A stretch of 34,734 nucleotides of DNA from a virus (IMGVR_UViG_2531839454_000020), one strand, 5' to 3'. Shown: positions 14,539 through 33,330, numbered from the stretch's first letter. Program-made: numbers and translations. Notes: generated by a model not told the origin, from the sequence alone.

Positions 14539-17500
14539 ATGCAATCAATCCAATTTAAACGAACTAATGTTTCTGGCAAAAAACCAACGCCGGAACAATT
14601 ACAGGTCGGTGAGGTAGCAATCAACCTTAAAGACCATGTTATTTTTACCAAAGACCGAGATCATGAAGTAGTTCAAATCTCTGTTTCTCCTGAAACTCAC
14701 GCGGCACTAGAATCTAAAGTTGATGCTAATAAAAAAGAACTGGATAGCACAATTGTAGTAAACGACCGCAATATTCACGCTAAAGTAGATGAAATTAAAC
14801 AAACTACTGATGCAACAATCGCAGCAAATCACGCAGAAATTAACAATAAAGTTGATGTAATTAAACGCGAAACCGACGCGACAATCGAGGCCAATAAAAA
14901 TAAAGCTGCTTCCGATCTTGCTGGTGTTAAAGCTGAATTGTCGGATACCATCAACGCTAATAAAAATGCGGCTGCTGTAGCAACTCAGGAACTGGACACC
15001 CGCATCAATAAAAAAGTTGATGATATTAAATCCCGTACCGATGCAACCATCGTAAGCAATCACAAAGCAATCAATGACAAAGTTGATTTGATTAAGGCAG
15101 AAACTGACCGCACTATCGCAGCAAATCACGCCTATGCGGAAAATCAGTTAACTGACACCTACAATAACCTTACTGGTGTGATTGCAGCCAATAAGCAAGA
15201 GGCAGCGGATAACGTCGCAGCATTAACCCGTGATGTTGAAGCCAAAAATACAGCAATTCATAGCAAAGTTGACAATAACAAGTCTTACACTGATTCTGAA
15301 TTGGCACGCTTAGAAAGCCGTATTGATGCAGCCGATGGATCAAGTGATGGTAAGTACATCAAAAAGCACGTAAACACTTGCACTGATGGCTATTTGCTGT
15401 CTAAGACCGCAAACCCTTTTGATGATCCGAGTGCTCTTAATCTTGATTACTTTGGTGCATTTCGCATGAATGACCTGGCGGGTCATATTGCAATGATCTT
15501 GCATGTTCCGCACCCATCCGGCGTTAATCATGCTCGTGGTTTTGAGTTCACTTATGGGTCTAATCCACATGCTACTGTAAGAACATACGGCTATGATGAA
15601 TTGGGACATTTGGCATATTCTCACCGCATGTATCATGAAGGTGATAAACCTACTCCGGCTGAAATTGGCGCATATTCGAAAGCAGAAATTGACCGACTGT
15701 TCCAGAAGACGCTTAATTTTGGTATCGAGGGTGGTTGGTTTAAACTAGGCACTTTGACAATGCCACAACAACACGGTCGCACGGCTAAGATCCGTTTGGT
15801 AGGTGGTAACGGTTATAACGTAGGACATAATGGAAAAGCCAATATTATCGAATTGGTGATTCGATGCGGCAACAATAGCCCGAAAGGTGTTGTATTCAAT
15901 GCGTATTATACTATTTGGCATTATGAACAACATTTTTGCGCTATTCCAACCGATGGCGACAATTACGATCTTTACGCTTACTACGGTGCACATACAGGAT
16001 TTGTTTTAGCAGAATATCAAGTTTCTTCCGGTGGTGTTTCTTTAAACCTGTTGGATACTCCTGAATATCTGGGTGGTGAAAAACCTGTTGCAGATGAAAT
16101 TTTTGATGCTCTTAACATTTCATCGTTCAATAACTTTAGCAACCGTGGGACGTTAAATTTTGCTGGCAATCATCAAGGCCAATATGATATTGAGCATTTA
16201 AACGAACAACCGACAAATGCTAAAAAGATGTTGCGTCGCTTCCGTAGTTGTGCACCAGCTACAATCTGGCATGAGACAGTTGATGATAACGCATATCGTC
16301 TTGCTACTGGATACGAAGATACAAATCAGGAATTATTGCTGACAGCAACATCCGGGTTACATGTCAAGAAATTAACATTGGATGGCGGTGTTACTGGAAA
16401 TTCTGGTATTGATATTCGTCGAGGACCAAACGAATCAAGTCATTTTAATTTCATGGATTATCGCACTGGACAAGATGTTCGTAATGGTTGGTTTGGTTTT
16501 GGTGATGGAACAACCAAAGATTTTATTTGGTGGAACGATAACGGTCAAAACTCTATAAACCTGATTGAAGATGGTGAATTGCATATTACTGGCGGTAAAG
16601 GCCAGAAAATTGTAATGAATAGCGAAGTTGCATTATCTGAAAATGCTCGTTTGGCTGTCAAAGGTGGTAACTATGGCTTAATTTTTAGAAATGATGGCGT
16701 TGGCTTCCATATTCTTACCACAGATCTCGGTGATTCATTTGGACCGTGGAATACTCGTAGACCATTCAGCTATAATTTTGCTGACGGTGGATTATATTTA
16801 GGTGGCACTGAAACTGCTCGTTGTTTGCATCTTGGAATTGATGGTAGTACCCGTCTTGAAGACAACCTTTTCTTTAAAGCTGGTTCTCGTCAATCTATGG
16901 ACTATATGGAACTCGTCCATTGGGGGGCAAGCAATACAGGTCGAAATAACGTTTTAAGTCTTCGTGACTCAAAAGGATTTTTCGCAGAATTTGAACGATT
17001 GGGTGATAATACCATTAAAAACACCTTCTTCGGGAAACTTAAAGTTAATCGTGGTTCTGACGCAATCGTCATGAATGCCGAAACGGGTGATTCGTCTATA
17101 TATTTGCTGGGTACTTGTGCTGATAATAACAACTGGTATATCGGTAAAGGTGGTGCTGATAATGGATTAGCGTTCTATAGCTATGCTACTAATGCTGCTA
17201 TCAATATTACAAACGCGGGTGATATCGCGCTAAGTCCAAAAGGTGTCGAAATGACTCATGTCAATAACGTTCGATTCTATGTTCATGGTGAACGTTGGAC
17301 TGCTAGCCAATCTGGAGGTTGGGGCGATCAATGGGGATTAGAAGCGCCGATATTTGTCGATCATGGTTATGTAGGACCAGATAGCTATTATCCAATTATT
17401 AAAGGAAGAAGTTTAATCACCAATCAAGGGTATACAACTGCCGTCGATTTTGGTATGCGTCGTGTTCCTCAAAATTGGGGGCAAGCAATTATTCGCGTTG

Positions 17501-17949
17501 GATCTGCGGAGGCATCGCCAGCGGCTGGTCATCCTCAAGCGGTGTTTGAATTTCATCATGATGGTACTTTCTATTCTCCTGGTAATGGTAACTTTAACGA
17601 TGTTTATATTCGTTCCGATGGTCGTCTGAAAATTAATGTTGAAGATTACGAAGAAAATGCGGTGGATAAGGTAAATAAACTCAAAGTTAAAACCTACGAT
17701 AAAGTTAAATCTCTTAATGACCGAGAAGTTATAGGTCATGAGATTGGTATTATCGCACAGGATTTACAAGAGGTATTACCGGAAGCTGTTAAAACCGCAA
17801 AAATTGGTGGTCTTGATAACCCAGAAGAAATTTTAACAATTTCAAACTCCGCAGTGAACGCGCTTTTAATTAAAGCGGTCCAAGAAATGAGCGAAGAAAA
17901 TAAACTTCTTCGTGAACGTCTTGCTGCAATTGAAGCTAAATTAGGGTAA
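14539..17949 (+). CDS. L-shaped-type tail fibre with C-terminal intramolecular chaperone (peptidase S74-like), 1136 aa
   Basis: N-terminal FKRTNVSGKKPTPEQLQVGEVAINLKD; four KVD-x-IK-xx-TD-x-TI-xx-NH repeats; C-terminal ~110 aa beginning S|DGRLKINVEDYE and ending in a coiled coil, as in auto-cleaving chaperone domains of T5-type fibres and endosialidases (recalled). Confidence 0.75.
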   Translation: MQSIQFKRTNVSGKKPTPEQLQVGEVAINLKDHVIFTKDRDHEVVQISVSPETHAALESKVDANKKELDSTIVVNDRNIHAKVDEIKQTTDATIAANHAEINNKVDVIKRETDATIEANKNKAASDLAGVKAELSDTINANKNAAAVATQELDTRINKKVDDIKSRTDATIVSNHKAINDKVDLIKAETDRTIAANHAYAENQLTDTYNNLTGVIAANKQEAADNVAALTRDVEAKNTAIHSKVDNNKSYTDSELARLESRIDAADGSSDGKYIKKHVNTCTDGYLLSKTANPFDDPSALNLDYFGAFRMNDLAGHIAMILHVPHPSGVNHARGFEFTYGSNPHATVRTYGYDELGHLAYSHRMYHEGDKPTPAEIGAYSKAEIDRLFQKTLNFGIEGGWFKLGTLTMPQQHGRTAKIRLVGGNGYNVGHNGKANIIELVIRCGNNSPKGVVFNAYYTIWHYEQHFCAIPTDGDNYDLYAYYGAHTGFVLAEYQVSSGGVSLNLLDTPEYLGGEKPVADEIFDALNISSFNNFSNRGTLNFAGNHQGQYDIEHLNEQPTNAKKMLRRFRSCAPATIWHETVDDNAYRLATGYEDTNQELLLTATSGLHVKKLTLDGGVTGNSGIDIRRGPNESSHFNFMDYRTGQDVRNGWFGFGDGTTKDFIWWNDNGQNSINLIEDGELHITGGKGQKIVMNSEVALSENARLAVKGGNYGLIFRNDGVGFHILTTDLGDSFGPWNTRRPFSYNFADGGLYLGGTETARCLHLGIDGSTRLEDNLFFKAGSRQSMDYMELVHWGASNTGRNNVLSLRDSKGFFAEFERLGDNTIKNTFFGKLKVNRGSDAIVMNAETGDSSIYLLGTCADNNNWYIGKGGADNGLAFYSYATNAAINITNAGDIALSPKGVEMTHVNNVRFYVHGERWTASQSGGWGDQWGLEAPIFVDHGYVGPDSYYPIIKGRSLITNQGYTTAVDFGMRRVPQNWGQAIIRVGSAEASPAAGHPQAVFEFHHDGTFYSPGNGNFNDVYIRSDGRLKINVEDYEENAVDKVNKLKVKTYDKVKSLNDREVIGHEIGIIAQDLQEVLPEAVKTAKIGGLDNPEEILTISNSAVNALLIKAVQEMSEENKLLRERLAAIEAKLG
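17617..17946 (+). other. predicted auto-cleaved intramolecular chaperone domain of the fibre
   Basis: Begins at the Asp of ...YIRS|DGRLK...; 110 aa to the stop. Confidence 0.55.
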
Positions 17950-17987
17950 TTGGAAAGCGGGGAGAAATCTCCGCTAAGGATTCTTAT

Positions 17988-18284
17988 ATGGGATATTGGG
18001 TAAGTAGTGAAATTAATACTAAAATCGATGCTTTAAAATGGCATGTATTTGATATTCCTAACGGCTATGGTACTGCTCGTGCTGGTGTCGCTGTAATGCG
18101 TCATAATGCTGGTGGTGGGTGGTCTGATGCACATATTAACGTAGATGGTTTGACCGTTGCTCGTCGTCGTGGTGGGACCAATTGGGGATCTACTATAAAT
18201 TCGTTTGTTCCTGCTGGCTGCACCGTCTCCTTTGGTTTAGGGGGTGAAGGTGGTGTTGAATATTTTAAATTCATGGAGTTTTAA
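17988..18284 (+). CDS. small Gly-rich protein, paralog 1 of 3 (98 aa), function unknown
   Basis: MGYWVSS...FDIPNGYG...CTVSFGLGGEGGVEYFKF; AAGGA SD. Confidence 0.6.
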   Translation: MGYWVSSEINTKIDALKWHVFDIPNGYGTARAGVAVMRHNAGGGWSDAHINVDGLTVARRRGGTNWGSTINSFVPAGCTVSFGLGGEGGVEYFKFMEF

Positions 18285-18948: not shown

Positions 18949-19419
18949 ATGACTACTAAATTTGATATTTTTTCTGGTGGCCTCGTTGGTCTGTTTCTGC
19001 ATGAAGAAGTAACTAACACCGATCTTGACAGTGAAAGCTATCTGGAAATTCCAGAATGTGCGGCTTTCCCGGAAACTGGTGTAGAACGTTCTACTGTCGA
19101 TGTTCCTAACTTCGGTGGTCCGTATAACCGTAAGCTGGTTGGTCGTATGTCTGTACCGGATATCGAACTTTCGATCAACTACATGCCGGGTAACGAAGTA
19201 CACGAAAAACTGATTAAAGCAACCGAAGACGGTAAGCGCGTACAGATTAAAATTGCTTACTACATCGACGCTACGAAAAAATCTGGTGTACATATCGCTT
19301 ATAACGGCTTCCTGTCTAAAACTACCATGACTGGTGGTGAGGATGCTGTAGTAGGCCGTACCTTCACCTTTGTAGTAGATGGTGCTCCGGTTAAACAAGC
19401 TGTTTTCCAGAAACTCTAA
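18949..19419 (+). CDS. major tail (tube) protein, putative (156 aa)
   Basis: Directly upstream of the G/T chaperone pair and tape measure; strong SD GAAGGAAAAG; followed by a strong terminator. Confidence 0.5.
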   Translation: MTTKFDIFSGGLVGLFLHEEVTNTDLDSESYLEIPECAAFPETGVERSTVDVPNFGGPYNRKLVGRMSVPDIELSINYMPGNEVHEKLIKATEDGKRVQIKIAYYIDATKKSGVHIAYNGFLSKTTMTGGEDAVVGRTFTFVVDGAPVKQAVFQKL

Positions 19420-20192: not shown

Positions 20193-22622
20193 ATGACAAA
20201 ACATATAGTAACAATAGAAGGGGATAATAAAGGGCTAAAGAGAAGTACCAATGAAGCCGCCGACCTTCTCGATAGTTTGTCTGAAAAGGCAAGTAATATT
20301 GATTTTGGTGGTGGCTTATCTGGTCTGACTGGATCTCTTCGTGGGATCGCTGGCTCTGCTGGTTTGGCTGCTGGTGGTATTGGCTTAGTTGCGACCGCAG
20401 TGGTTGCAGCCGCTAAAGCTGGTGCGGAATACGTTAAACAGTATTCAGAAGTATCTAAGGCGACCGGACTCTCGATTGAATCCCTTCAAAGACTAGAAAA
20501 GGAATTTTCTGGCACTGGCTTAACAGTTGAAAAATTCGGTGATATCAACAAAGACACCTTAGATAAAATGGGTGATGCATGGGCTAACGGTGGCGGTATT
20601 GCCGATGACTTAGAATCGGTTGGCCTTAAGTTAGAAAACTATGCTCACTTCATGACTGATCCGCAAGGTGGTATGAAAGCGGCGATCCAAGTGTTCTATG
20701 ACATGAAGAAAGCCGGAAAATCAATGGCTGAAATCAAGTTCATGATGGAATCTTTAGCCAGTGATTCAAGCCATATGACCAGCCAGCTTGAGAAATATAA
20801 TACTGCTCAAGAGGCGATGATCGCTATTCAGAATCAATCTGTTAACGTCACCGAAGAAAACGCTAAAAAATATGATAAATTTTCTCAAAATATCAATAAG
20901 CTGGAAAATAACCTGAAAGGTGTCGGTATGACCATTTCTGGTCCGCTGGTTGATAGTTTAAACTGGTTATTTGACTGGTTTAATATTGATTGGGAAAAGA
21001 GTTCTCTATTCAGGGCATTAGATCGACTGAATAAAGAAGGCAAGACCGCAACTGGCGGTATTCTTAACGCCAACCATAAAGACGCTCAAAAAATTATTGA
21101 CAAGTACAATAAAGAAAAGCGTTGGAATAATCTGGCAGATTGGGAAAAGGCCGCGATCCGTGGTGCTGGTGTCGATCCTCGTACTGCTGGCTTTGATGTT
21201 GAAGGATTTAAGAAACGTTTTGGTGATTCTTATAAGAAAAATGGCTCTCTGATTGTTGTCGATAACGGGGAACATCTGACACGCAAGGCAGATCCTAACA
21301 CTGATTTGACTATACCAAATAAACCAGTAAGACCAGAATCATTGGGTAAATCTGGCAACGAGAAGAAAGCCGAAGAAGAAGCACGCAAGAAAGCGGAAGA
21401 GGCAGCTAAAAAGGCTAAGGAAGCCGCAGAAAAAGCACAGAAAGAACGCGAGGACGCAATCAAGCGACTGAATGCACTTGATGTTAAATTGCAAGGGCAG
21501 GTTGCCGCGTCTATTGCTTCTCAAAACAAGCAGTTAGAAGCCAGTTTGAAAGATTTGGATACTGCTTTAGCTCTGGGCTTAATCTCTCAGGAAGACGCAG
21601 CCGCGAAACGCCAGGCGCTAATCGATCAGAATACTGAAAACGTATACAAAATGGTCTTAGGTGCTGATCCGGTTGATGCTCTGAATGCTTTAACACAATT
21701 GCAACAAATCAGGGACAACGAGTTAGAAAGCCATAAACGGTTACTTGATGGTAAGGCTATCTCCTACGAAGAATATATGCGTCGTGTGAATGATACCGAA
21801 CAAAGTTATTCACAGATTGAAGATTCTTTGCATGGAATGGATGGTTTTAAAACCAATCAATTGACCAATAGCTTAGACTATCAGGACTCAAATAATCCGT
21901 TTGCTAAATTTAATGCAATCGATAAAGAGAAATCGGATGCTGAACAAGATTATAAGACCGATAAACTCAAGATTGATGGGATCACCGATCCGGCTAAACG
22001 GATGGAAGAATTAGAAAAACTCAATGAAAACCATCAAAAACGAATGGCTGCAATTGAGAAGAAATATGCTGATGCTCGCCAGTCAATAGCCGATGATATG
22101 TACGGCGGTTTTGCTGCTGCAATGACTCTCTTCGGGCAGGAAAACACTAAAGCTATGCAGATGGCTTTCAATGCTCATAAAGCATTCTCTATCGGACAAG
22201 CGACGGTGAACATGTGGACGGCTGCTACCGATGCATGGAACGATCCGACCAACGTCACCACAGGTCAAAAAATCGCGGCTGCTGCATTGGCTGTTTCTCA
22301 GAACATGGGGAACATCGCAAACATCAAGTCTACTAACGTTAGCGGTATGGCTCATGATGGTATTGATAACATCCCTCGTGAGGGTACATGGTTGCTTGAT
22401 AAGGGTGAACGAGTAGTTGATCAGCGTACTAACGGTGATTTGAAAGACTTCCTTGCTGCTCAAAAATCAGGTGGGGGTAACTCTCAGCCGATTGAAGTTA
22501 ATGCGCCTTTGAACATTAACGGCAACGTTAATAGCTCAGACAAGATGGTCATGGATGCTATCAAACGTCACGCTAAGTTTGTTGCTCAGGCGATAGAAGA
22601 CGTTCAGCGTCGTAAGATGTAA
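20193..22622 (+). CDS. tape measure protein (809 aa)
   Basis: Long protein after the chaperone pair; Gly/Ala-rich N-terminal segment and K/E/A coiled-coil stretches (EEEARKKAEEAAKKAKEAAEKAQKE). Confidence 0.75.
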   Translation: MTKHIVTIEGDNKGLKRSTNEAADLLDSLSEKASNIDFGGGLSGLTGSLRGIAGSAGLAAGGIGLVATAVVAAAKAGAEYVKQYSEVSKATGLSIESLQRLEKEFSGTGLTVEKFGDINKDTLDKMGDAWANGGGIADDLESVGLKLENYAHFMTDPQGGMKAAIQVFYDMKKAGKSMAEIKFMMESLASDSSHMTSQLEKYNTAQEAMIAIQNQSVNVTEENAKKYDKFSQNINKLENNLKGVGMTISGPLVDSLNWLFDWFNIDWEKSSLFRALDRLNKEGKTATGGILNANHKDAQKIIDKYNKEKRWNNLADWEKAAIRGAGVDPRTAGFDVEGFKKRFGDSYKKNGSLIVVDNGEHLTRKADPNTDLTIPNKPVRPESLGKSGNEKKAEEEARKKAEEAAKKAKEAAEKAQKEREDAIKRLNALDVKLQGQVAASIASQNKQLEASLKDLDTALALGLISQEDAAAKRQALIDQNTENVYKMVLGADPVDALNALTQLQQIRDNELESHKRLLDGKAISYEEYMRRVNDTEQSYSQIEDSLHGMDGFKTNQLTNSLDYQDSNNPFAKFNAIDKEKSDAEQDYKTDKLKIDGITDPAKRMEELEKLNENHQKRMAAIEKKYADARQSIADDMYGGFAAAMTLFGQENTKAMQMAFNAHKAFSIGQATVNMWTAATDAWNDPTNVTTGQKIAAAALAVSQNMGNIANIKSTNVSGMAHDGIDNIPREGTWLLDKGERVVDQRTNGDLKDFLAAQKSGGGNSQPIEVNAPLNINGNVNSSDKMVMDAIKRHAKFVAQAIEDVQRRKM

Positions 22623-22672: not shown

Positions 22673-23233
22673 ATGTTCAAATCCAAGAATATTAAAATCA
22701 CAGATTTTACTCTTAAATCAAAACAGCCTTTCTTCAAGGCGCAATCTATTTCTGGTAAGTTCCAGCGTCGCTTTACTGGTATTCATTTTTATGAAGCAGA
22801 ATTTACAGCTAATTTCATGGCTCAGGATATTAACGAAGTAAAAGAATTTGTAGCACGTCACCTTTTTGGTCGTCCTTTTAGTGTGCCACTGTCTTACTTT
22901 TCAAAATATACAGGCGATGTACGCCAGATGGTAACGGCTGCTGCTGGTACTGCTCGCGGTGGGCGTAAGGTAAGACTCTCCAACTTCACCGGAACACTGA
23001 AAGCGGGAACTATCATCCAGTTTGAGAACCACAAGAAAATCTACACGATCACCGAAGATGTGAAATCAGGTGGTGAAATGAAACTCTTCCCTAACTTGCG
23101 TCAAAACGTCCTGGCTGGTGAGGTGATCAAGTATCAGAACGTAGAAGGTGAATTTGTTCTCAAAACTGAAAATATCGATTGGAAGATCGCCCAGATTGGC
23201 AAGATGAAATTCGAATTAGTGGAGAATGTATAA
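22673..23233 (+). CDS. minor tail protein (lambda M-like by position), 186 aa
   Basis: First ORF after the tape measure; stop overlaps next start (TAATG). Confidence 0.45.
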   Translation: MFKSKNIKITDFTLKSKQPFFKAQSISGKFQRRFTGIHFYEAEFTANFMAQDINEVKEFVARHLFGRPFSVPLSYFSKYTGDVRQMVTAAAGTARGGRKVRLSNFTGTLKAGTIIQFENHKKIYTITEDVKSGGEMKLFPNLRQNVLAGEVIKYQNVEGEFVLKTENIDWKIAQIGKMKFELVENV

Positions 23234-23886
23234 TGGCAACTATTCAGGAATCATTCAGCAAACTATGCACTAATCTGGACTTCATCGAGGTCTACAACGA
23301 CCAGACAGGTCAGAACGTGTCTAGATTGACGCTACCGCAGCTTTTTTCCACTGGATCGATGTTTCACATTATCGAAGTGATAACAGCGTCAGGGGACGTT
23401 CTACGGCTTACAGATGGGTATTTCGATTTGGACTATAACGGATTTACGTATCTCGCAACGGGTGATTTTCTTCAAATCTCATCGAATACCGAAGAGAAGG
23501 AGATCAACAACAACGGGATTAACGTAACCGTTTCTAACGTTCGCGAAGAATACATTACTCTCATTCGAAACAAGCAATTCGATAAATCCGATGTGAAAAT
23601 CGAGATGGTTTTCCTTAACCCCAACACGGGCAAGGTTGAAACCACTTACCCTGTTTTCCGTGGGGTAGTCGATTCCATCGGTATTAACATCGAACATGAA
23701 GATGATGAGTGTAAAAACGAATCAGAATTTCAGCTTAATAGTATCTGGGAAGTTCTAGATAAAAACGCTCGTAGTCATGCCTCCGATGGTATCCACCGTT
23801 CCTATGTTGGAAACGAGAACGATCTATTCTTCTCAAGGACCGGGCGCTGGCAATCGGAAAGCAAGTGGCATTCATCGAAGAAATAA
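23233..23886 (+). CDS. minor tail protein (lambda L-like by position), 217 aa
   Basis: Start at MATIQESF with GGAGAA SD; the longer track ORF (from 23179) overlaps the previous gene without an SD. Confidence 0.45.
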   Translation: MATIQESFSKLCTNLDFIEVYNDQTGQNVSRLTLPQLFSTGSMFHIIEVITASGDVLRLTDGYFDLDYNGFTYLATGDFLQISSNTEEKEINNNGINVTVSNVREEYITLIRNKQFDKSDVKIEMVFLNPNTGKVETTYPVFRGVVDSIGINIEHEDDECKNESEFQLNSIWEVLDKNARSHASDGIHRSYVGNENDLFFSRTGRWQSESKWHSSKK

Positions 23887-23932
23887 TCCCTTCTCCCTAA
23901 GCCTAGTAAATAACAGCATGGAGGTATTCAAC

Positions 23933-24352
23933 ATGCTAAAAACTAGGCTTATCACCGATTACATCAATTCTTTAATAGGTCAGGAGTTCGTTCAAGGCGA
24001 GAATGATTGCAATATAATTGCATGTAAGATCATCGATATTCTCGCTGGTACTGACCTATATAATTCTCTTTATAAAAAATATTCAACTAAAGAAGAAGGC
24101 TTGAAAATCTGCAAAGAATTAAGCGGATACACAAATATCCTTCAACCAATTAAGAAACATTTCAAATTAGTCACTGATGATTTACAGGACGGCGACTTAC
24201 TGGTCACAGCCCACAAATTAGGAAACCGCAAATATTATTCCGTAGTTCCTCATTATTCCGGTTATGGCCTCGTTGAAGAAGATGGTATCTGGATGACCAT
24301 TCCTGTTTCAGACATTGACTATGAACAAGTTTATAGATTCGGGGGGGAATAA
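23933..24352 (+). CDS. tail assembly protein (lambda K-like, NlpC/P60-type), 139 aa
   Basis: Start at MLKTRL with GGAGGT SD; ENDC motif suggests an NlpC/P60-type catalytic Cys; stop overlaps the next start. Confidence 0.45.
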   Translation: MLKTRLITDYINSLIGQEFVQGENDCNIIACKIIDILAGTDLYNSLYKKYSTKEEGLKICKELSGYTNILQPIKKHFKLVTDDLQDGDLLVTAHKLGNRKYYSVVPHYSGYGLVEEDGIWMTIPVSDIDYEQVYRFGGE

Positions 24353-27300
24353 TGGGATTTGAAATATTGGTAGGCGCGGTTATTGCTGGTGCGTCTGCTG
24401 GGATGGCTGCTGCTGCAACATTTTCTGTTATGACCGCAGTCGCTATCGGTATGGCTGCTGGTGCAATGACCTTGATCGCTTCCACTGTAGGCGCACCAAA
24501 AACACCGAAAGTACAAAGCCCAGATAATGCGGTGACACTAGGAACATCAAACGATCCTAAGACAGTATTCCCCGTTCTTTTCGGTACTACCCGCACGGGT
24601 GCAATCTGCGTTTACAAAGCAATTTCACAGCGTGAAAACAACAAACTGGTACAAATTTTTGCTATTTCCGAAGGTGAGATCGATCACTTTAAAGCACTGC
24701 ACATCGATAATAAAAACGTTCTCATTAGCCAGAATATGACAATTCGTGATGGCATTCTCGATAAAGGAAACATTAAAGACGAATACCGCAAAGTTTTAGA
24801 AGTCGAGTTTCGCACGGGTAAAAATCCTAACACTGCATTGGATTTAGCTAAACATCATTTGGGCGCTGATTGGGATGATCGGTATCAGGGTAACGGCATT
24901 GCGACCATGTGTATTGTTTTACGTCGTGATGACAAATCTTTGGCTGCTGGTGTTGATATTCTCCAGCCTAATAGCCAGGTAGCGGTCGATGTTATGGGCT
25001 TAAAGATTCGTAACCTTGAAACCAATGCTATTGAGGCTAGCACTAACGGCGTGGACCAGATTTTCCATTATCTGACAAATACAAAGTATGGTCTTAGTGT
25101 ACCGATTGAAAATATTAACGTTGATTCATTCCTGAAAGTGCGTAAACAAGTACGCCAGATGGATTTACATTCCAACGGTGCATGTGATCCGAACGCCAGC
25201 TTTAAAGAGAACTTAACTAGCCTTATGCAGACTTTCGGCGGGGTGATGTTCGAATCCTTTGGACGTATTACGCTGAAACTGGATGCTCCTGATATTGTTA
25301 AGCATACTTTCAATGAAGACAATATCATGATGGGTAAGGTATCACTGAAAACAGGTGGCACTAACGGTTATTTCAATACCATTAACGCGATGTATCAAGA
25401 ACCATCAATCGACTATTCAGAGCAAATGCTACGTTATCCGGCTGATGCTGAAAACGATGCTACTATTCGTCAAGATGGTCGAATTATCGCTAAAGATATC
25501 GAATATCGTTTTGTTAAGTCTAAAGCCCAGATTGATAAACTAGCAAGTATTGAACGAAATAAATCTCGTATCACTCAGGTTATCAGCTTTATGACTACTG
25601 ACGCGTTCACTGCCGAAGTGTGGGATGTTATTAGCGTTACCTATGATGAATTGAAACTGAATAATTCACTTTGGCGCATTACTGCAATTGATCGTTCTAT
25701 TGATTCTGGTATTGCTGGGATGATGACTATCACCGCTACAGAATATAATTCTCAGGTTTATACTGACCTGAACTATGCGGCGACTCCAGACAATAGACCT
25801 ACTGGTTTACCGGATTCAATGACAGTACAGAAACCGACTAATTTCAGAATTAAGGCAACTGGTGAGACAATCCACGGTAAAAACGTTACTTTGACATGGG
25901 ATGCACCGGAAGATTTTAACCGCTACGGTTTCCAGATTGATTATCGTGTGAGTGGATCACCTAACTGGATTAAGCTGGGACAGACTTCACAGCAAATTTT
26001 CAATATCAATGCACTGGCAAAAGATCGTTCCTACGATTACCGCGTTTGTGCTTTCGGTATTATTGCTCGTTCCGAATGGGTGGAACTGGTTAACCAGAAT
26101 CCAGAAGTTACCTATGAACTGCCTACGCCAGTGATCCGCATCAAAAATCAGGGTGGCACACCAGGAACTTTTGAAGGCAATGATCTGATTATCGAATGGG
26201 ATAACCAGCAACAATTAGATGTGATGATCAACGGTGAAGCTAACAAGTTTAGTGACCTGTTTGAAGCATACATTATCAAGGTAACTAACAAGGCTGGTAA
26301 GTCTATTCAGTACCGTACCCGCGATCCTGAATCATGGACGTATACGCTTGATATGAACCAGTTTAACGGCCTTTCGCGTCAACTGACGGTAGAAGTATCA
26401 GCTAAGGGCTATAACAACTCAGAGAGCGCCCCAGCGCGTTTAGTGGCTATCAACCCACAACATAAGCCGATGAAAGGTTTTAGTGCGCGTGGTGGCTTTA
26501 ATACTGCGTTTGTTAGCTGGGCGGATGACGTAGAACATGACTATGCAGGGTCAATCATCCAGTATGCAACCGATAATACTTTCTCCGATGCAAGGGCAGT
26601 GACTACCAATAGCGTTAGTCATACTTCCTTTGATTTGGCTGACGGGGATTATTATATCCGTGGTGCTCACTATGATATTTTCGGTATGGATGATGCTGTT
26701 TGGTCTGAACCGTATTTCATGCAAATGAAATCTACCATTAGCTGGGACGATCAGGACAAAGAAGCACTGGAAGACCTGATTGGTTTACAAGATCGCTTAG
26801 ATGAAACCATCGCGGATGCTATTGCTCAAGCTGGCGCTAATGCCGATGCTAAGATTGATGCAATGCATAAACAGATTACTACCGAAACCGGAAAGACGGT
26901 CCAAGCCTCAGCCGATACCCTTAAGAATCTGATTGCTACCAGTGAGCAAGCCAGCGCAACTAAGATTGATCAGGTTAAAGCTGAACTGAAAGGCGATATC
27001 ACCAAAGAAGTTAGCGCATCCGCTACTACCCTGAAACAAGCAATTGCTACCAGTGAGGCAGCAAGCGCAAGTAAGATTGATCAAGTTCGGGTAGAAATGG
27101 ATGGCAAGATTGCTGGTGTGAATCAGGAAGCAGATGTAAAAATCGATGCTTTGAAGGGAACCATTAACAGCAAATATAATCTGGCAGTTAATGCAGATGG
27201 TCGCGTGGCTGGTATTCATATGAGCGCAACCAATGATCCGGCAGAACCGACAAGAATCATCTTTACGGCTGATAAAATCGCGGTAGCTCCACAAGACGGA

Positions 27301-28098
27301 TCAGAAGTTTGTCCGTTTGGCATCGAAGATAACAAAGTTTATCTTGATAATGCGATGATTCGTAATGCTGCAATTGGCACAGCCCAGATTAGTGATGCTA
27401 GTATCACCACGGCTAAGATCGGCACAGCCCAGATTAACGGCGCTCACATCCAACACGCACAGATCGGAACAGGTCATATCATTGATGGCTCTATCGATAA
27501 TGCTAAAATTGGTAACTATATCCAGTCTTATAACTGGAATGGTAACGATGGATGGTATATCGGCAAAGATGGCACTTGTCATTTTAGACACGCTAATATT
27601 CGTGGTCATTTGGTGGCTGATTCCGGCGAAATGAACAACGTAACGATTAATTCAAGTTGCCGCATTTTGGGTATGCTTGATGCTAATCAGGTGCGTGGTG
27701 ACTTCGTGAAAGTGGTTGGTAGGAGTTTCCCGCATCGCCAACCAAACTGGCCTGATGGTACAATCACTGTAAGGGTCGAAGATGATCATCCATTCGATCG
27801 CCAAATAGTGATTCCAGCGATTCATCATAACGGGTCTGTTCGTAGTGGCGAAAGTAGCGATCATTGGGATACTTGCCGACTAATCGTTAAGAAAAATGGT
27901 GGTGTTCTATATGATCGCACTGCAACTTCTGGCTGTATGTACAGTGGAGTTATTGACATGCCAGCCGGACACGGGGCAGTAACAATGACTTTTGAAGTTT
28001 ACTGTAAGGGCGTTAACAACTATAACCCAAGTGCATATATCAGCGATCTAACGGTAATGGTAACTAAGAAAGCCGCTACTGGTATTTCTGTTTCTTAA
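24352..28098 (+). CDS. central tail fibre / host specificity protein (lambda J-like) with gpI-like hydrophobic N-terminus, 1248 aa
   Basis: Gly/Ala-rich hydrophobic N-terminus; long central region; C-terminal DDHPFDRQIV...VIDMPAGHGAV...VMVTKKAATGISVS resembles the receptor-recognition end of lambda-type J proteins (recalled, not aligned). Confidence 0.7.
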   Translation: MGFEILVGAVIAGASAGMAAAATFSVMTAVAIGMAAGAMTLIASTVGAPKTPKVQSPDNAVTLGTSNDPKTVFPVLFGTTRTGAICVYKAISQRENNKLVQIFAISEGEIDHFKALHIDNKNVLISQNMTIRDGILDKGNIKDEYRKVLEVEFRTGKNPNTALDLAKHHLGADWDDRYQGNGIATMCIVLRRDDKSLAAGVDILQPNSQVAVDVMGLKIRNLETNAIEASTNGVDQIFHYLTNTKYGLSVPIENINVDSFLKVRKQVRQMDLHSNGACDPNASFKENLTSLMQTFGGVMFESFGRITLKLDAPDIVKHTFNEDNIMMGKVSLKTGGTNGYFNTINAMYQEPSIDYSEQMLRYPADAENDATIRQDGRIIAKDIEYRFVKSKAQIDKLASIERNKSRITQVISFMTTDAFTAEVWDVISVTYDELKLNNSLWRITAIDRSIDSGIAGMMTITATEYNSQVYTDLNYAATPDNRPTGLPDSMTVQKPTNFRIKATGETIHGKNVTLTWDAPEDFNRYGFQIDYRVSGSPNWIKLGQTSQQIFNINALAKDRSYDYRVCAFGIIARSEWVELVNQNPEVTYELPTPVIRIKNQGGTPGTFEGNDLIIEWDNQQQLDVMINGEANKFSDLFEAYIIKVTNKAGKSIQYRTRDPESWTYTLDMNQFNGLSRQLTVEVSAKGYNNSESAPARLVAINPQHKPMKGFSARGGFNTAFVSWADDVEHDYAGSIIQYATDNTFSDARAVTTNSVSHTSFDLADGDYYIRGAHYDIFGMDDAVWSEPYFMQMKSTISWDDQDKEALEDLIGLQDRLDETIADAIAQAGANADAKIDAMHKQITTETGKTVQASADTLKNLIATSEQASATKIDQVKAELKGDITKEVSASATTLKQAIATSEAASASKIDQVRVEMDGKIAGVNQEADVKIDALKGTINSKYNLAVNADGRVAGIHMSATNDPAEPTRIIFTADKIAVAPQDGSEVCPFGIEDNKVYLDNAMIRNAAIGTAQISDASITTAKIGTAQINGAHIQHAQIGTGHIIDGSIDNAKIGNYIQSYNWNGNDGWYIGKDGTCHFRHANIRGHLVADSGEMNNVTINSSCRILGMLDANQVRGDFVKVVGRSFPHRQPNWPDGTITVRVEDDHPFDRQIVIPAIHHNGSVRSGESSDHWDTCRLIVKKNGGVLYDRTATSGCMYSGVIDMPAGHGAVTMTFEVYCKGVNNYNPSAYISDLTVMVTKKAATGISVS

Positions 28099-28203: not shown

Positions 28204-28482
28204 ATGACTGAAATTATATATGGCGGTATCGGTGTTATCGCCTTAATTTGTGGTGGGCTTTGGAGACTTCACCGAAATCAATTAGCCACAGAAAATAGAT
28301 TGTCGAAATTGGAATCCAGCGACGCATTGTTAAACCAGAAGTTTGAGACGATGCAGAATAACCATACTCAGATTGCTGAACGTGTTTACCAAATGGAACA
28401 AACACTACACGGTATAGAGAAGAAAGTGGTTGCGATGGACGCCAAATTTGACCAAGTTCTCGACATACTCAAACAAAAATAA
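28204..28482 (+). CDS. membrane protein with one N-terminal TM helix and coiled coil (92 aa); holin- or i-spanin-like candidate
   Basis: IYGGIGVIALICGGLW hydrophobic segment then helical C-terminus; SD GGGGGCG. Confidence 0.4.
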   Translation: MTEIIYGGIGVIALICGGLWRLHRNQLATENRLSKLESSDALLNQKFETMQNNHTQIAERVYQMEQTLHGIEKKVVAMDAKFDQVLDILKQK

Positions 28483-28500
28483 TAATAAAGGGGTGAATAT

Positions 28501-28671
28501 ATGAAGAATAAACTTAAGAAATATTTTGGTTATCTCTTGATTGTCGCCCTCACTTATAACGTAGCTATTAGACCTCTGCTAACGTCCTTTGGGCTTGAAC
28601 TCCCGGCTATGACCGTGGATGAACAATTGCTAAGGACACTGGCGGGGGTCTTTTCGTTATTAGGGGGCTAA
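28501..28671 (+). CDS. small membrane protein (56 aa); holin-like candidate
   Basis: MKNKLKKYFGYLLIVALTYNVAIRPLL... with one TM; SD AGGGGTG; stop 1 nt before the next start. Below the track cut-off. Confidence 0.4.
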   Translation: MKNKLKKYFGYLLIVALTYNVAIRPLLTSFGLELPAMTVDEQLLRTLAGVFSLLGG

Positions 28672-28672
28672 C

Positions 28673-29356
28673 ATGGCAACCAGTACCAATAAACGAAACG
28701 CTCTAAGGACAAAGAAAGCGTTACGCCAATGGACTGATAAAGCAACCGATACATTCGAAAGGGCGATAGGGGAAGGGGCGATCTTTGCTGCTCGTGCACT
28801 CCAGAAGAAGATTAACAAGAATGTTGATAGACCTACTCGATGGACTCAGCAAGCTGTAGGTAATACCAACTACAAGAACCGATCAGGGACGAGACACCAA
28901 ATCTTCATCAAGGGCGCAAGGGATAAGGACAAGAAGATCGGCAGTCAGGATGACTATCTGAAACACTATTTCGATGGTGGCAAAATCAATAAGCTAGTTC
29001 CAATCGCTAACGGCAAGGTCTTAGACGCCCACGGGAACATTAAGGCCATCAAAGGCGGTAAGATGATGCGTAACCTCGAAAACGGCAACTTCATCAAGGT
29101 AGAGAACAAGGAAGGGACTTTTATCATGAAGAAGTACAAGCCTAAGAAATCCCGAACCAAACGCGCTAGGAATGGATCGGCGGTGGCAAAACGTCGCTTA
29201 GAGAAACGCATACAGAAACAGAGCAAGCGAATTGTTGCCGTTAAATCGGATAAAATTTCTACTCGTTATTCGACGCTAGGATTGTGGGAAAGCAACGAAG
29301 CAATGATGCTTGAAAACATCAATAAGCACATTAAATCGCGCATGAAATACGTTTAA
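28673..29356 (+). CDS. highly basic hypothetical protein (227 aa)
   Basis: Lys/Arg-rich throughout (KKYKPKKSRTKRARNGSAVAKRRLEKRIQKQSKR); SD GGGGGC. Confidence 0.55.
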   Translation: MATSTNKRNALRTKKALRQWTDKATDTFERAIGEGAIFAARALQKKINKNVDRPTRWTQQAVGNTNYKNRSGTRHQIFIKGARDKDKKIGSQDDYLKHYFDGGKINKLVPIANGKVLDAHGNIKAIKGGKMMRNLENGNFIKVENKEGTFIMKKYKPKKSRTKRARNGSAVAKRRLEKRIQKQSKRIVAVKSDKISTRYSTLGLWESNEAMMLENINKHIKSRMKYV

Positions 29357-29751: not shown

Positions 29752-30105
29752 ATGTTAAGTAAGCATTTTTCTCGCAAGGAATTTAAATGTAAATGCGGAA
29801 AATGTGATTATGATACAATCGACGCTGAATTACTGGTGATTCTTGAGGATGTACGAGAGCACTTCGGTAAACCAGTGATTATTAACAGTGGCAACCGTTG
29901 CCCGACTCATAACAAGAATGTAGGCGGGGCAGCCAATAGCTATCACGTTCGAGGCCGCGCGGCTGACATATCGGTGAAAGGAATTTCTCCTGATATTGTT
30001 CATGCTTATCTTGATGGGAAATATCCTACTCAATACGGCTTAGGAAAATATAAAACCTTTACGCATATTGATTCCAGATCAAAAAAATCACGGTGGAATG
30101 GATAA
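29752..30105 (+). CDS. endolysin, peptidase M15 family (zinc peptidoglycan peptidase), 117 aa
   Basis: SYHVRGRAAD (H-x6-D) and FTHID zinc-ligand pattern; SD AAGGGGGT. Confidence 0.7.
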   Translation: MLSKHFSRKEFKCKCGKCDYDTIDAELLVILEDVREHFGKPVIINSGNRCPTHNKNVGGAANSYHVRGRAADISVKGISPDIVHAYLDGKYPTQYGLGKYKTFTHIDSRSKKSRWNG

Positions 30106-30469
30106 AACAAAAGCGCCCACCAGAGGCGCTTTTTTGTTAGAATATGCTGGCGACGTTAGCTATATTTCTGACCATTTTTTCATTATAGACAAATATACCG
30201 CAGATGATAAAGTGGTATTCGACGAAGTTGATCCGTCTCTGGTTGAAGCAATGAAAGAACCTGAGATCGTCATTGAAGAAACAAAAGAAGAATCTCCAGC
30301 AGTTGAACCAGTGGTCGAAGAAGTTAAGTCAGATGTTGAAGAAGCACCGGAAGTTAAAGTGAAATCTCCGGTAGCCAACATTTTCTCTGACGAAGCAGAA
30401 CATCGTTCCCCAGCGCATGACACTGATTCATTTTGCGATCTTACTGGTTTCCAAAACTACAATAATTAA
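30098..30469 (+). CDS. acidic hypothetical protein; start uncertain
   Basis: Open frame with an E/V/P-rich acidic region; its 5' end overlaps the endolysin stop and the terminator, so the true start may be internal (e.g. ATG at 30251). Confidence 0.3.
   Translation: MDKTKAPTRGAFLLEYAGDVSYISDHFFIIDKYTADDKVVFDEVDPSLVEAMKEPEIVIEETKEESPAVEPVVEEVKSDVEEAPEVKVKSPVANIFSDEAEHRSPAHDTDSFCDLTGFQNYNN
30111..30136 (+). terminator. intrinsic terminator after the endolysin gene
   Basis: aagcgcc-caccaga-ggcgctt followed by tttttt. Confidence 0.6.
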
Positions 30470-31587: not shown

Positions 31588-33267
31588 TTAAATTCCAAAT
31601 TCCTGTAATGGACCTGGTATTTCCTCTTCTGGTTTCCAGTTCTTATCTGTCAGCATGTCTAAACATGGATGCAGAACAAGCCCGTTGCTCTCCAGAATCT
31701 GCCTATCATTGATAGTTTTCAAATCAATGAATATCCGGCCTTTCCTCGTTCCTCTTGAATTTTCTATTACAACTCTCTGGGTCTTTCCATCGATGTATTC
31801 CAGTACAAACAAGTTTTTGTTTCTGTCAATCCTGCTACACCCGATCCGCTTTAGAGCTTGCTTAATCTTAAACCGGACCTTTAGTCGTTCCTCGTTATAA
31901 ACATCTTCTAAATCAAATTCTGCGAGCTTCTCCCAGCCTTGAGAGTCCACAGAATACATTTCCTCTTCTGCCATCTTGATCTGATTGTAGAGTGTTTCAC
32001 GCTCGCTATTGAGGGTAGTAATCTGATCGGCTAGCTCCTTCGTTGCTCCTGTCATAGCAGAAAGGGCAATCAGGTTATCAATCTTGCGTGATATTTCATC
32101 AACCTGTACTTTCAAAGCCGGAACCGGATTAGCCTTGTCCTCAGCAATCCAGATTTTATCAGCCAGCAATTGCAATACAGCTTTCTCTAATTGATCACCT
32201 CGAAAACTCCAGTTTGGATGCTCGCAATCAAGTCTACGTGAACGGGTCGCATCACATGTATAACGATACTGGTCAGAACGTTTGTTTGTTCCCTTCACTT
32301 TAACCATAGCGCAGCCGCAATGATCACATTTCAATAGGCCAATACCACTAAGCAGGGGGATCGGTTTAACTTCTTCCTTCTCTCCAAAGTTCCATGCTCT
32401 AGCACCAATATTTTTCTTAAGGTGATAGAACGTAGCATCATCAATAACACGAGGGTAATAATCCTTTAACTCATAGTTAACGCCATCTACAGAGACTTCC
32501 TTGATACCAATCAAAGCGCGGGTATGGAACAACCTTTCAACCATTGCCCGTGACCATTTTGAATGCTTCTTGTTGCTTACTGCTGGTGGTGGTGCATATG
32601 TCTCGTTAAGGTGATCCAGTATTTCGGCGGTTGAACGTCCATTCTTCCGTAATTCCACAATCTCCTGAACAACAGGGAAGTACACCGGATGAGGCAGCAC
32701 ATAACCGGAAGTGGTATCAGTCCACCACATATTCTTTCCAACTTCCTCGATTGCCACTGCCGGATTCTGGGGATTTTCTTGATGAGCTTTAATCTTAATC
32801 AGTGCGCTTGAGTTAGTACGATTGCGCTTAGTCTGACTTTCCTCATTACCACGGATGAATAAAAGGATGGAGAACATCAGGTCCATCGGATTAGCGGTAA
32901 CAGTATCCAGCGAGTAGATCTTGTTATCCATGCCAGTAACAATGGTTATTCCCCTACGGATGATTGAAAGGAATAACTCCTGCGCACTGACAATATCGGC
33001 ACGGGATAAGCGGTCCAAGTTTTCAATGAATAGCCAGCTACCAACAGGAACGGATCTACCAATTGCATCAAGGAAACGAGATAACGCCCCTGTTTTAGAG
33101 TTAGCACCCTTAAACGCAGATACACCCAGATCCTGATAATCATTTACCAGTTCAAGGTCATACTTTGCCGCAACCTCTCTCGCCATCCTGATTTGTCGTT
33201 CATAACTCGAACCATCATTCTGACGCATAGACGAGAAGCGAATATACGAATACAGTTTAGTTTTCAT
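31588..33267 (-). CDS. large serine recombinase (integrase/resolvase family), ~559 aa
   Basis: N-terminal MKTKLYSYIRFSSMRQ...YERQ resolvase catalytic motif, Cys-rich CDHCGC...C zinc ribbon, C-terminal coiled coil; the track start at 33282 adds 5 residues. Confidence 0.8.
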   Translation of the reverse strand: MKTKLYSYIRFSSMRQNDGSSYERQIRMAREVAAKYDLELVNDYQDLGVSAFKGANSKTGALSRFLDAIGRSVPVGSWLFIENLDRLSRADIVSAQELFLSIIRRGITIVTGMDNKIYSLDTVTANPMDLMFSILLFIRGNEESQTKRNRTNSSALIKIKAHQENPQNPAVAIEEVGKNMWWTDTTSGYVLPHPVYFPVVQEIVELRKNGRSTAEILDHLNETYAPPPAVSNKKHSKWSRAMVERLFHTRALIGIKEVSVDGVNYELKDYYPRVIDDATFYHLKKNIGARAWNFGEKEEVKPIPLLSGIGLLKCDHCGCAMVKVKGTNKRSDQYRYTCDATRSRRLDCEHPNWSFRGDQLEKAVLQLLADKIWIAEDKANPVPALKVQVDEISRKIDNLIALSAMTGATKELADQITTLNSERETLYNQIKMAEEEMYSVDSQGWEKLAEFDLEDVYNEERLKVRFKIKQALKRIGCSRIDRNKNLFVLEYIDGKTQRVVIENSRGTRKGRIFIDLKTINDRQILESNGLVLHPCLDMLTDKNWKPEEEIPGPLQEFGI

Positions 33268-33330
33268 ACCATTTCCAAACAAAAACGCCCCTACCGCGTA
33301 TTATAACGATAGGGGCTAGGTGATTAAAGA

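Follow-up and report, generated by a model that had tools for sequence, protein, structure and literature searches.

A lambda gpI-like plug module continuous with a J-type central tail fibre protein in an Escherichia coli prophage

In phage lambda, gpI (the tail tip assembly/insertion/plug protein; 8IYK chain I) is a separate polypeptide encoded between K and J. The locus described here raises the question of whether the gpI half that resides in the virion and a J-type fibre can form a single chain, and, if so, how such a protein would act and which receptor it would recognise. The window, that is, the whole stretch of viral DNA analysed (IMGVR_UViG_2531839454_000020; 34,734 nucleotides), carries one continuous ORF on its plus strand at 24352..28098 (1248 aa, ATG to TAA), whose product is read as a central tail fibre / tip attachment protein (J-type, baseplate-hub). 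The ORF is genuine: its start codon shares bases with the stop of the upstream gene (TAATG), GGGGGGGA stands 5' of it, and the start taken here is the PGAP start in E. coli ES2. All motifs quoted in the initial annotation were located in the translation, namely APKTPK at aa 48–53, PVLFGTTR at aa 74–81, DDHPFDRQIV at aa 1144–1153, VIDMPAGHGAV at aa 1200–1210 and VMVTKKAATGISVS at aa 1235–1248, the end of the protein. Homologues in E. coli genomes carry the label "phage tail tip protein", and the product is an ordinary further example of an already known protein type, not a new kind of system.

The window corresponds to an E. coli prophage sitting in ycdX, found in 55 of 5426 complete genomes, which confirms the enterobacterial host that had been proposed. 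The genes preceding the J-like ORF, all on the plus strand, encode a tape measure protein (20193..22622; phrog_13674, E 5e-67), a distal tail protein (22673..23233; phrog_1302, E 2.6e-16), a hub protein of the DUF2163 / phiJL001 Gp84_N type (23233..23886) and a small DUF6950 protein (23819..24352; Pfam DUF6950, E 1.3e-11; PGAP start), and the J-like ORF, following the genes for tape measure, distal tail protein and hub, stands where a siphophage hub/J gene is expected. The Pfam assignment of the hub protein (PF09931) is borderline, at 26.2 bits for a cut-off of 26, and PGAP also calls it DUF2163; it is the functional counterpart of gpL and RcGTA g13, although no similarity to lambda L was found by pairwise BLASTP. 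The DUF6950 gene, in the position of lambda K / RcGTA g14, is translationally coupled to the J-like gene; its product showed no likeness to lambda K in pairwise BLASTP and no match in a sequence search of the PDB. A separate upstream DUF2163 / Gp84_N hub protein is likewise part of the GTA-type tail tip. In RcGTA the hub is a protein of its own (g13), a member of the DUF2163 type, and a gene for a small protein lies between it and the megatron.

The central part of the protein, aa ~76–700, has the siphophage baseplate-hub/J fold. In a search of the family profile against all 177,635 distinct PDB sequences, T5 pb3 was matched at E 1.6e-64 (aa 76–696 to pb3 263–944) and lambda gpJ at E 2.1e-35, with the best stretch at aa 231–437 (gpJ 267–486). 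An AlphaFold alignment of 10 close homologues alone gave a pLDDT of 34 and became usable after 29 distant representatives had been added, the hub body then being modelled at pLDDT 81.5. With this model, Foldseek returned T5 pb3 (7zhj_b) at E 3e-36 and lambda gpJ at E 7e-25, while the open-cone pb3 chain 7zqp_b was matched at E 8.6e-23 with an rmsd of 4.2 Å across 473 aligned columns. The best 14 Foldseek matches are all phage tail-tip hub proteins, with the tail tips of T5, DT57C, JBD30, T1, lambda and Chi leading, and RcGTA chains are absent among the 60 PDB profile matches and 50 Foldseek matches listed. Pfam Phage-tail_3 (PF13550) reaches 20.0 bits in the J-like ORF for a cut-off of 23, and is on record for close homologues at 78–85% identity.

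Along the chain, hub domains resembling HDII–HDIV of the siphophage baseplate hub / J protein lie at aa ~106–480 (24667..25791), followed by fibronectin-III-like beta-sandwich domains at aa ~490–790 (25819..26721), which were recognised from profile and model. Two FN3-like domains are seen in the model, with beta-sandwich strands at aa 496–582 and 595–699, and a third may be present, judging from the sequence pattern alone; Pfam fn3 remains below threshold, and profile matches to titin and other FN3 domains fall at aa 495–620. An alpha-helical coiled-coil shaft then occupies aa ~795–945 (26734..27186) and contains an internal duplication (aa ~850–883 and ~887–920), visible in the protein only, as Tandem Repeats Finder detected no DNA-level repeat in the J-like gene. 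In two shaft alleles (P0003 and P0062), a clean deletion of 37 aa was found.

The distal part of the fibre begins with a central straight fibre beta-prism at aa 931–1092 (27142..27627; Pfam Phage_Tail_Tip, PF09327, 68.2 bits, cut-off 22), a region that matches T1, F2-pyocin and J-like fibres in the PDB. It precedes an Ig-like domain at the extreme C-terminus, aa 1132–1248 (27745..28095; Ig_GpJ_C, PF12421, 122.2 bits, cut-off 26.2), and NCBIfam lambda_TipJ gives a partial match across aa 1069–1248. The C-terminus can thus be assigned as a lambda-J-type receptor-binding domain, and the three C-terminal motifs had been matched correctly to the receptor-binding end of lambda J, where the 10-mer DDHPFDRQIV recurs identically at residue 1026. 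The alignment to lambda J is significant (aa 1068–1248 against lambda J 947–1131; BLASTP, 42% identity over 180 aa, E 3e-35), so that the J-type nature of the end stands while the extent originally given, the last ~250 aa, shrinks to ~180 aa of clear similarity to lambda J; likeness to other lambdoid J proteins reaches back to aa ~845–900. Recent acquisition of the domain from lambdoid phages was considered and rejected, the best match having only 55.6% amino-acid identity.

At the other end of the chain, two adjoining segments have counterparts in gpI: a Gly/Ala-rich hydrophobic leader at aa 1–46 (24352..24489), corresponding to gpI helices H1/H2 (gpI ~101–153; PMC11101478), and a plug/linker (APKTPK...) with a beta-strand segment (PVLFGTTRTGAICVYKAIS) at aa 47–105 (24490..24666), corresponding to gpI ~156–221. 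Only in the leader does Kyte-Doolittle hydropathy, averaged over 19 residues, reach 1.6 or more, and AlphaFold monomer confidence is low for aa 1–56. The likeness to gpI is modest, at 27–34% identity, and lies partly within the compositionally biased hydrophobic stretch. The junction at aa 93–135 bears a suggestive resemblance to lambda J 15–64 (z = 3.2; 25 of 2000 shuffles reach the score). A gpI-family HMM matched only one of the 321 six-frame ORFs of the window, the J-like one, and there only over HMM positions 108–219, and a separate gpI gene elsewhere in the window was thereby rejected. The ubiquitin-like N-domain that lambda gpI possesses (Pfam PF06805, Lambda_tail_I) was found neither in the J-like ORF nor in any other ORF of the window.

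Such an N-terminus could resemble gpI purely by composition, as an unspecific membrane anchor or a signal-like stretch with no relation to the lambda plug. In keeping with this, aa 1–46 are of low complexity and rich in Gly and Ala, Pfam and NCBIfam give no match on the N-terminal 130 aa, and in a tblastn search of phage genomes with the N-terminal 113 aa the sole match was DCP80. However, the Pfam silence is uninformative, because the Pfam gpI model spans only gpI 14–97, and the best match to gpI falls outside the hydrophobic stretch, between aa 48–100 and gpI 156–215 (BLASTP, E 3e-6). The hydrophobic leader itself is aligned to gpI 102–153, and when both N-terminal segments were shuffled separately none of 2000 shuffles (43 ± 7) came as high as the observed local alignment score of 87. 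Similarly, hhalign gives a probability of 96.6% (E 6e-10), and the family profile matches gpI 105–214 at E 1e-5 in the PDB search, co-linear with the gpJ and pb3 matches. Profile positions 72–120 are also matched by pb3 263–311. A compositional coincidence is therefore very improbable, and aa ~2–105 are homologous to the virion-retained part of gpI (~101–221: hydrophobic helices, plug and beta strands), which upholds the proposal that the first ~90 aa resemble the C-terminal half of gpI, fused in frame to a J-like body. A further reading, in which a frameshift or sequencing error has merged an I-like with a J-like gene and the fusion is spurious or a pseudogene, found no support and is made hardly credible by conservation. 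At 96–98% DNA identity, an unbroken copy of the ORF is present in independent complete genomes of E. coli; about 120 protein clusters (90% identity), drawn from E. coli, Providencia and Salmonella, likewise keep the gene in one intact frame, and distant homologues, down to ~20–30% identity, have the leader at residue 1. The hydrophobic leader is present in 35 of the 39 distant long homologues, and the fused gpI-like leader is widespread and the arrangement common. Megablast of the J-like gene against phage genomes found no match. Short homologues were also considered as stand-alone gpI-like proteins and rejected, since none of the 10 tested carries the gpI ubiquitin-like domain; by our own reading, those inspected look like truncated J fragments, because their sequence continues into the start of the J body. 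From the continuous ORF, conserved as such, it follows that the J-like protein contains a gpI-type module and is not a gpI protein.

As to the receptor, the initial annotation had pointed to a LamB-like porin, of which the porin part holds as a reasonable family-level guess while a LamB-specific receptor is not supported. Characterised Ig_GpJ_C members bind trimeric outer-membrane porins (LamB, OmpC or OmpF), and sequence by itself cannot tell which porin would be used here. Binding to LamB (maltoporin), as in lambda, would agree with the shared domain family (41–43% identity to lambda J, with the framework motif DDHPFDRQIV identical) and with LamB being the native receptor of lambda and Phi21. 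However, the allele alignment shows that the quoted C-terminal motifs belong to a conserved beta-framework common to all alleles, whereas the four stretches separating the framework strands diverge from lambda as well as from A8, and from lambda in both sequence and length; should these stretches correspond, as we infer, to the receptor-contacting loops L1–L4 (PMC11101478), conservation would not extend to the contact surface. Among receptor-binding domains with a solved structure and a characterised function, the nearest is that of the A8 gpJ chimera (PDB 9WCA), an engineered lambda-J fused to a natural E. coli gpJ C-terminus, which is nearer than lambda in identity (47%), in bits (157 vs 121–124) and in the PDB search (E 5e-45 vs E 3e-35), and which uses OmpC and still functions when the host's lamB is deleted (Brodel et al. 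2024, PMC11338833). Its receptor is not transferable to the J-like protein, because identity is 47% and the variable segments differ. It has been reported that four to six mutations, mostly in J, enable lambda and Phi21 to employ OmpF or OmpC besides LamB; in this family, a handful of changes switches porin use. In addition, the prophage family has at least seven divergent, exchangeable alleles of the domain (the present one and the P0004, P0066, P0068, P0075, P0096 and P0097 types), for which a polymorphic target such as OmpC would fit better than the conserved LamB. LamB is thus an unlikely receptor, and a trimeric porin in the broader sense remains the preferred reading. Identity of body and tail is decoupled in this family, as in allele P0004 (99% body, 72% tail), and the C-terminal domain is unrelated in the Salmonella and phage DCP80 homologues.

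Compared with lambda gpJ (PDB 8IYK, 8XCJ), the J-like protein has the same domain order of hub, FN3, helical shaft, prism and receptor-binding domain; the last ~180 aa (neck and Ig-like receptor-binding domain) are held in common at 42% identity, the beta-prism fibre is of the same family, and homology of the hub domains shows in both profile and fold comparisons. Its first ~1000 aa, however, have no pairwise-detectable similarity to gpJ, the gpI-like N-terminal module is a feature that gpJ does not have, and the adjacent genes for the hub and the small protein show no relationship to lambda L and K. With gpI, co-linear over aa 2–105 and gpI 102–221, it shares the hydrophobic helices, the APK..TP..Q plug segment and the PVL(F/Y)G..R.G strands. 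T5 pb3 (7ZHJ, 7ZQP), the best profile and fold match to aa ~76–700, has its plug within the same chain, placed internally (~263 onwards) because the pb3 N-terminus also holds a gpL-like HDI part; pb3 lacks a fibre or receptor-binding domain of the lambda type, T5 employing pb5 instead. In the RcGTA megatron g15 (PMC7296036) and in the Avs-1 hub protein gp23 (PMC13612043), an N-terminal lumen-closing or tripod-forming segment is likewise fused to the hub, and in RcGTA membrane penetration by this segment is also predicted; both are likened to the J-like protein by their descriptions, and RcGTA lacks a C-terminal fibre or receptor-binding domain of the lambda type. The fused leader has structural precedents in RcGTA, T5 and Avs-1.

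It is proposed, with a probability of roughly 85%, that the product of the ORF is a single modular chain which, as a trimer, forms the central tail fibre / baseplate hub of a temperate siphovirus of E. coli and acts as follows. The chain would run from gpI-like helices, plug and strands through hub, FN3-like domains, alpha-helical shaft and beta-prism fibre to the Ig-like receptor-binding domain. On the pattern of lambda, T5 and RcGTA, three N-terminal segments would lie in the tip lumen, closing the tube and holding the C-terminus of the tape measure protein. When the C-terminal domain binds a protein of the outer membrane, with a trimeric porin as the likeliest partner, the signal would travel along fibre and shaft; rotation of the hub domains would follow, then opening of the plug, with the hydrophobic helices entering the outer membrane before the tape measure protein and the DNA do. 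The receptor-binding domain would serve as an exchangeable cassette that determines host range within the prophage family.

The locus is a natural and widespread case of the lambda gpI plug module covalently joined to a J protein, and its practical value is modest. The at least seven natural lambda-type receptor-binding domain alleles, carried on an unrelated hub body, may be usable for retargeting lambda-based delivery particles, as has been done with A8 and 1A2 gpJ. From this arrangement, the gpI N-domain and gpK can be read as accessories particular to lambda. It is an evenly balanced proposal that the virion-resident half of gpI is a detached N-terminus of the J/hub protein, the fused state, represented by this prophage family and the many fused homologues, being common and possibly ancestral. 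If so, the lambda split site would lie between the PVLYGxxRVG strand at the end of gpI and the AISEGPIEG strand at the start of J, and the matching strands adjoin in the J-like protein (aa 74–110). In that case the gpI ubiquitin-like N-domain, with its associated gpK, would be a means, specific to the lambda lineage, of delivering a plug that has become separate, and this prophage family would be a natural test of a plug working without the ubiquitin-like domain.

The coordinates 24352–28098 correspond to exactly one open reading frame, which runs from an ATG at 24352 to a TAA at 28096–28098 and encodes a J-like central tail fibre of 1248 aa. The stop codon of the upstream gene overlaps this ATG (TAATG), a ribosome-binding-like run, GGGGGGGA, precedes it, and the same start was chosen by the NCBI pipeline in E. 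coli ES2, whose copy of the gene is 98.3% identical. All five motifs quoted in the initial annotation were found (aa 48–53, 74–81, 1144–1153, 1200–1210 and 1235–1248), the exact 10-mer DDHPFDRQIV being common to the query (aa 1144–1153) and lambda J 1026, and residues 1–46 form the only strongly hydrophobic window, so that the observation of the ORF and its motifs is confirmed. The window is a prophage. Of 5426 complete E. coli genomes, 55 carry the gene chromosomally at 80–98% DNA identity, and the enterobacterial host proposed earlier is borne out, the window being an E. coli prophage. At 31588–33282 on the minus strand, a large serine recombinase with Resolvase, Recombinase and Zn_ribbon_recom domains acts as the prophage integrase; the copy of the element in E. 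coli ES2 terminates in a serine recombinase that adjoins a truncated ycdX, which indicates that ycdX is the attachment site. The structural module comprises lambda-type terminase and portal, a protease–capsid fusion, tail tube, tape measure protein and distal tail protein, followed by a DUF2163/Gp84_N hub, a DUF6950 protein and then the fibre gene. [quoted passage not shown]

The N-terminal ~90 aa had been likened to the C-terminal half of lambda gpI, a separate plug protein in lambda. Pfam cannot test this claim, because its gpI model spans only gpI residues 14–97, the ubiquitin-like domain. It was found by BLASTP that query residues 48–107 match gpI 156–223 (34% identity, E 3e-6), and the Smith–Waterman score of residues 2–105 against gpI 102–221 was 87, compared with 43 ± 7 for shuffles in which the hydrophobic and non-hydrophobic parts of the N-terminus were randomised separately, none of the 2000 reaching the observed score. 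Similarly, the N-terminal family aligned with 61 distinct gpI C-halves at an hhalign probability of 96.6% (E 6e-10), and in the whole PDB lambda gpI was matched by a 7-sequence family profile at E 1.2e-3 and by a 34-sequence profile at E 1e-5 (profile 11–102 = gpI 105–214). The query was the sole match to a gpI-family HMM among the window's 321 six-frame ORFs, at HMM positions 108–219 only, and begins almost exactly at the start of ordered gpI, MGFEILVGAVIAGAS versus gpI 100-GGVFQIVLGAAAIAGS; the ubiquitin-like N-domain has no counterpart in the whole window by Pfam or by the gpI-family HMM on six-frame ORFs. These searches uphold the homology to the gpI C-half. In lambda, gpI residues from ~101 or ~134 to 223 persist in the virion, forming a trimer inside the tip lumen, where the plug (159–175) shuts the tube, two hydrophobic helices are thought to enter the outer membrane, and strands run through the gpJ hub domains via beta-augmentation and support the tape-measure C-terminus (PMC11101478, PMC10721106, PMC12617516).

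A body profile built from the query and 33 homologues, of which a library clustered at 50% supplied 29, matched in the PDB the T5 baseplate hub protein pb3 (E 1.6e-64, profile 76–696 = pb3 263–944), lambda gpJ (E 2.1e-35, best stretch 231–437 = gpJ 267–486), the tail-tip proteins of T1, F2-pyocin and phage Chi, and another J-like protein. The AlphaFold2 model of residues 1–700 (34-sequence alignment) reached a pLDDT of 81.5, with only 1–56 and 481–485 unconfident; its 14 top Foldseek matches were all siphophage tail-tip hub proteins (T5, DT57C, JBD30, T1, lambda and Chi; T5 7zhj_b, E 3e-36; lambda, E 7e-25), and the tightest superposition was with the T5 open-cone chain 7zqp_b (4.2 Å, 473 aligned columns, E 8.6e-23). 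At the junction, query 93–135 weakly resembles lambda J 15–64 (AISEGEIDH vs AISEGPIEG, z = 3.2). From the gpI-like N-terminus and the J/hub body matches, therefore, the ORF really is a single-chain "I(C-half)-J". The hub is followed by FN3-like sandwiches, a coiled-coil shaft and a beta-prism. In the shaft (window 26899–27111, aa ~850–920), a ~35-aa unit is duplicated; two homologous alleles of the prophage family, P0003 and P0062, are without exactly 37 aa, one copy of the unit, and other alleles carry a different version 33 aa shorter, giving a fibre-length polymorphism inside one prophage family.

The lambda-J-like C-terminus was likewise recovered, over the last ~180 aa rather than the ~250 aa claimed. 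Query 1073–1247 corresponds to lambda J 952–1131 (BLASTP, 42% identity, E 3e-35), with no further significant segment in that comparison, and Pfam assigned Phage_Tail_Tip to aa 931–1092 (68 bits, cut-off 22) and Ig_GpJ_C to aa 1132–1248 (122 bits, cut-off 26). A lack of significant alignment to J C-termini would have refuted the claim, which survives because such alignments exist. Among all PDB sequences, the best matches were "A8 gpJ 713" (9wca, E 5e-45), an engineered lambda-J fusion, and lambda gpJ (8xcj and 8iyk, ~1e-34). Among phage genomes, the closest domain belongs to long-tailed Stx and other lambdoid phages such as VT1-Sakai (55.6% identity), to whose J the likeness reaches back to ~residue 845–900.

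The proposal of a LamB-like receptor was over-specific. The motifs on which it rested are the conserved domain framework common to all alleles, and the four segments between the framework strands, which by position probably correspond to the receptor-contacting loops L1–L4 (PMC11101478), diverge from their lambda counterparts in length as well as sequence. The identity of the domain is 47% to A8 and 41–43% to lambda, A8 and lambda themselves sharing only 43–54%. It has been reported that A8, lambda gpJ to residue 964 joined to a natural E. coli gpJ C-terminus, was selected for function without LamB and uses OmpC (PMC11338833). Lambda and Phi21 gain the use of OmpF or OmpC, besides LamB, through four to six mutations that fall mostly in J. 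At the level of the family, the best guess is a trimeric porin, with OmpC at least as likely as LamB and both being candidates only. At least seven alleles of the domain, 43–81% identical to one another, occur in the prophage family, the query allele being a minority type (8 of 119 clusters). Allele type is decoupled from body identity (P0004, body 99%, tail 72%), and Salmonella homologues and Escherichia phage DCP80 have an unrelated C-terminal domain. It can be concluded that the receptor-binding domain is an exchangeable host-range cassette.

DCP80 (PQ671644, 14463–22437), a 141-kb phage assigned to Straboviridae/Gaprivervirus that has motA and endonuclease VII, holds the only phage-database homologue of the query body (38.8% identity, residues 29–1119); it adjoins an ORF of tape-measure size, odd in a T4-like myovirus, and may reflect a chimeric assembly, misclassification or an unusual lineage. 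A side tail fibre ORF of 1136 aa (14539–17949), ending in a Peptidase_S74 intramolecular chaperone domain, lies between tail-tube-like genes at 13632–14465 and 18949–19419. Over its distal ~600 codons and the small ORF that follows (16135–18255), the DNA is 97.3% identical to gp37, for the distal subunit of the long tail fibre, and the gene beside it in Krischvirus KFS-EC, a virulent T-even-like phage; a temperate siphovirus and a lytic myovirus thus seem to have exchanged a fibre tip very recently. Directly 3' of the central fibre gene, 28204–29356 encodes proteins of 92 aa (with a transmembrane segment and a coiled coil), 56 aa (a membrane protein) and 227 aa (very basic, weakly matching phrog_1924 "minor tail protein"). 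These genes may serve in lysis or superinfection exclusion; after them come an ORF of 115 aa and the gene for the M15 endolysin. In the variable region between endolysin and serine recombinase, a 258-bp patch (30195–30452, inside ORF 30068–30469) matches, at 97.7% identity, an internal portion of inh, the inhibitor of prohead protease gp21, of Krischvirus Phi1 and GEC-3S; in E. coli ES2 this position is occupied by a DEAD/DEAH helicase gene, and the patch could be an anti-T-even "moron" or recombination debris.

By homology, an ejection mechanism may be proposed in which trimeric J would use its own N-terminal plug to shut the tail and would hold the tape measure protein. Receptor binding at the Ig-like domain would twist the prism and flip the helical shaft, the FN3 strings and hub domains would open, the plug would part, and six hydrophobic helices would pass into the outer membrane before the tape measure protein and DNA. 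A search with residues 1–200 across 1.84 billion representatives (E <= 1e-3) returned 55 proteins, with nearly all matches starting within the target's first ~30 residues, and 35 of 39 targets of at least 600 aa have the hydrophobic leader. None of ten short matches tested carries the gpI ubiquitin-like domain, and those inspected look like truncated J fragments because they continue directly into the start of the J body. Since gpI has already been equated with the plug of T5 pb3 in the structural literature, and gpL, gpI and the gpJ N-terminal part together have been suggested to correspond to pb3 (PMC10721106), the fused form is one of the known ways in which hub modules are divided between polypeptides, and the query is an additional protein of known families whose module arrangement is common outside lambda.
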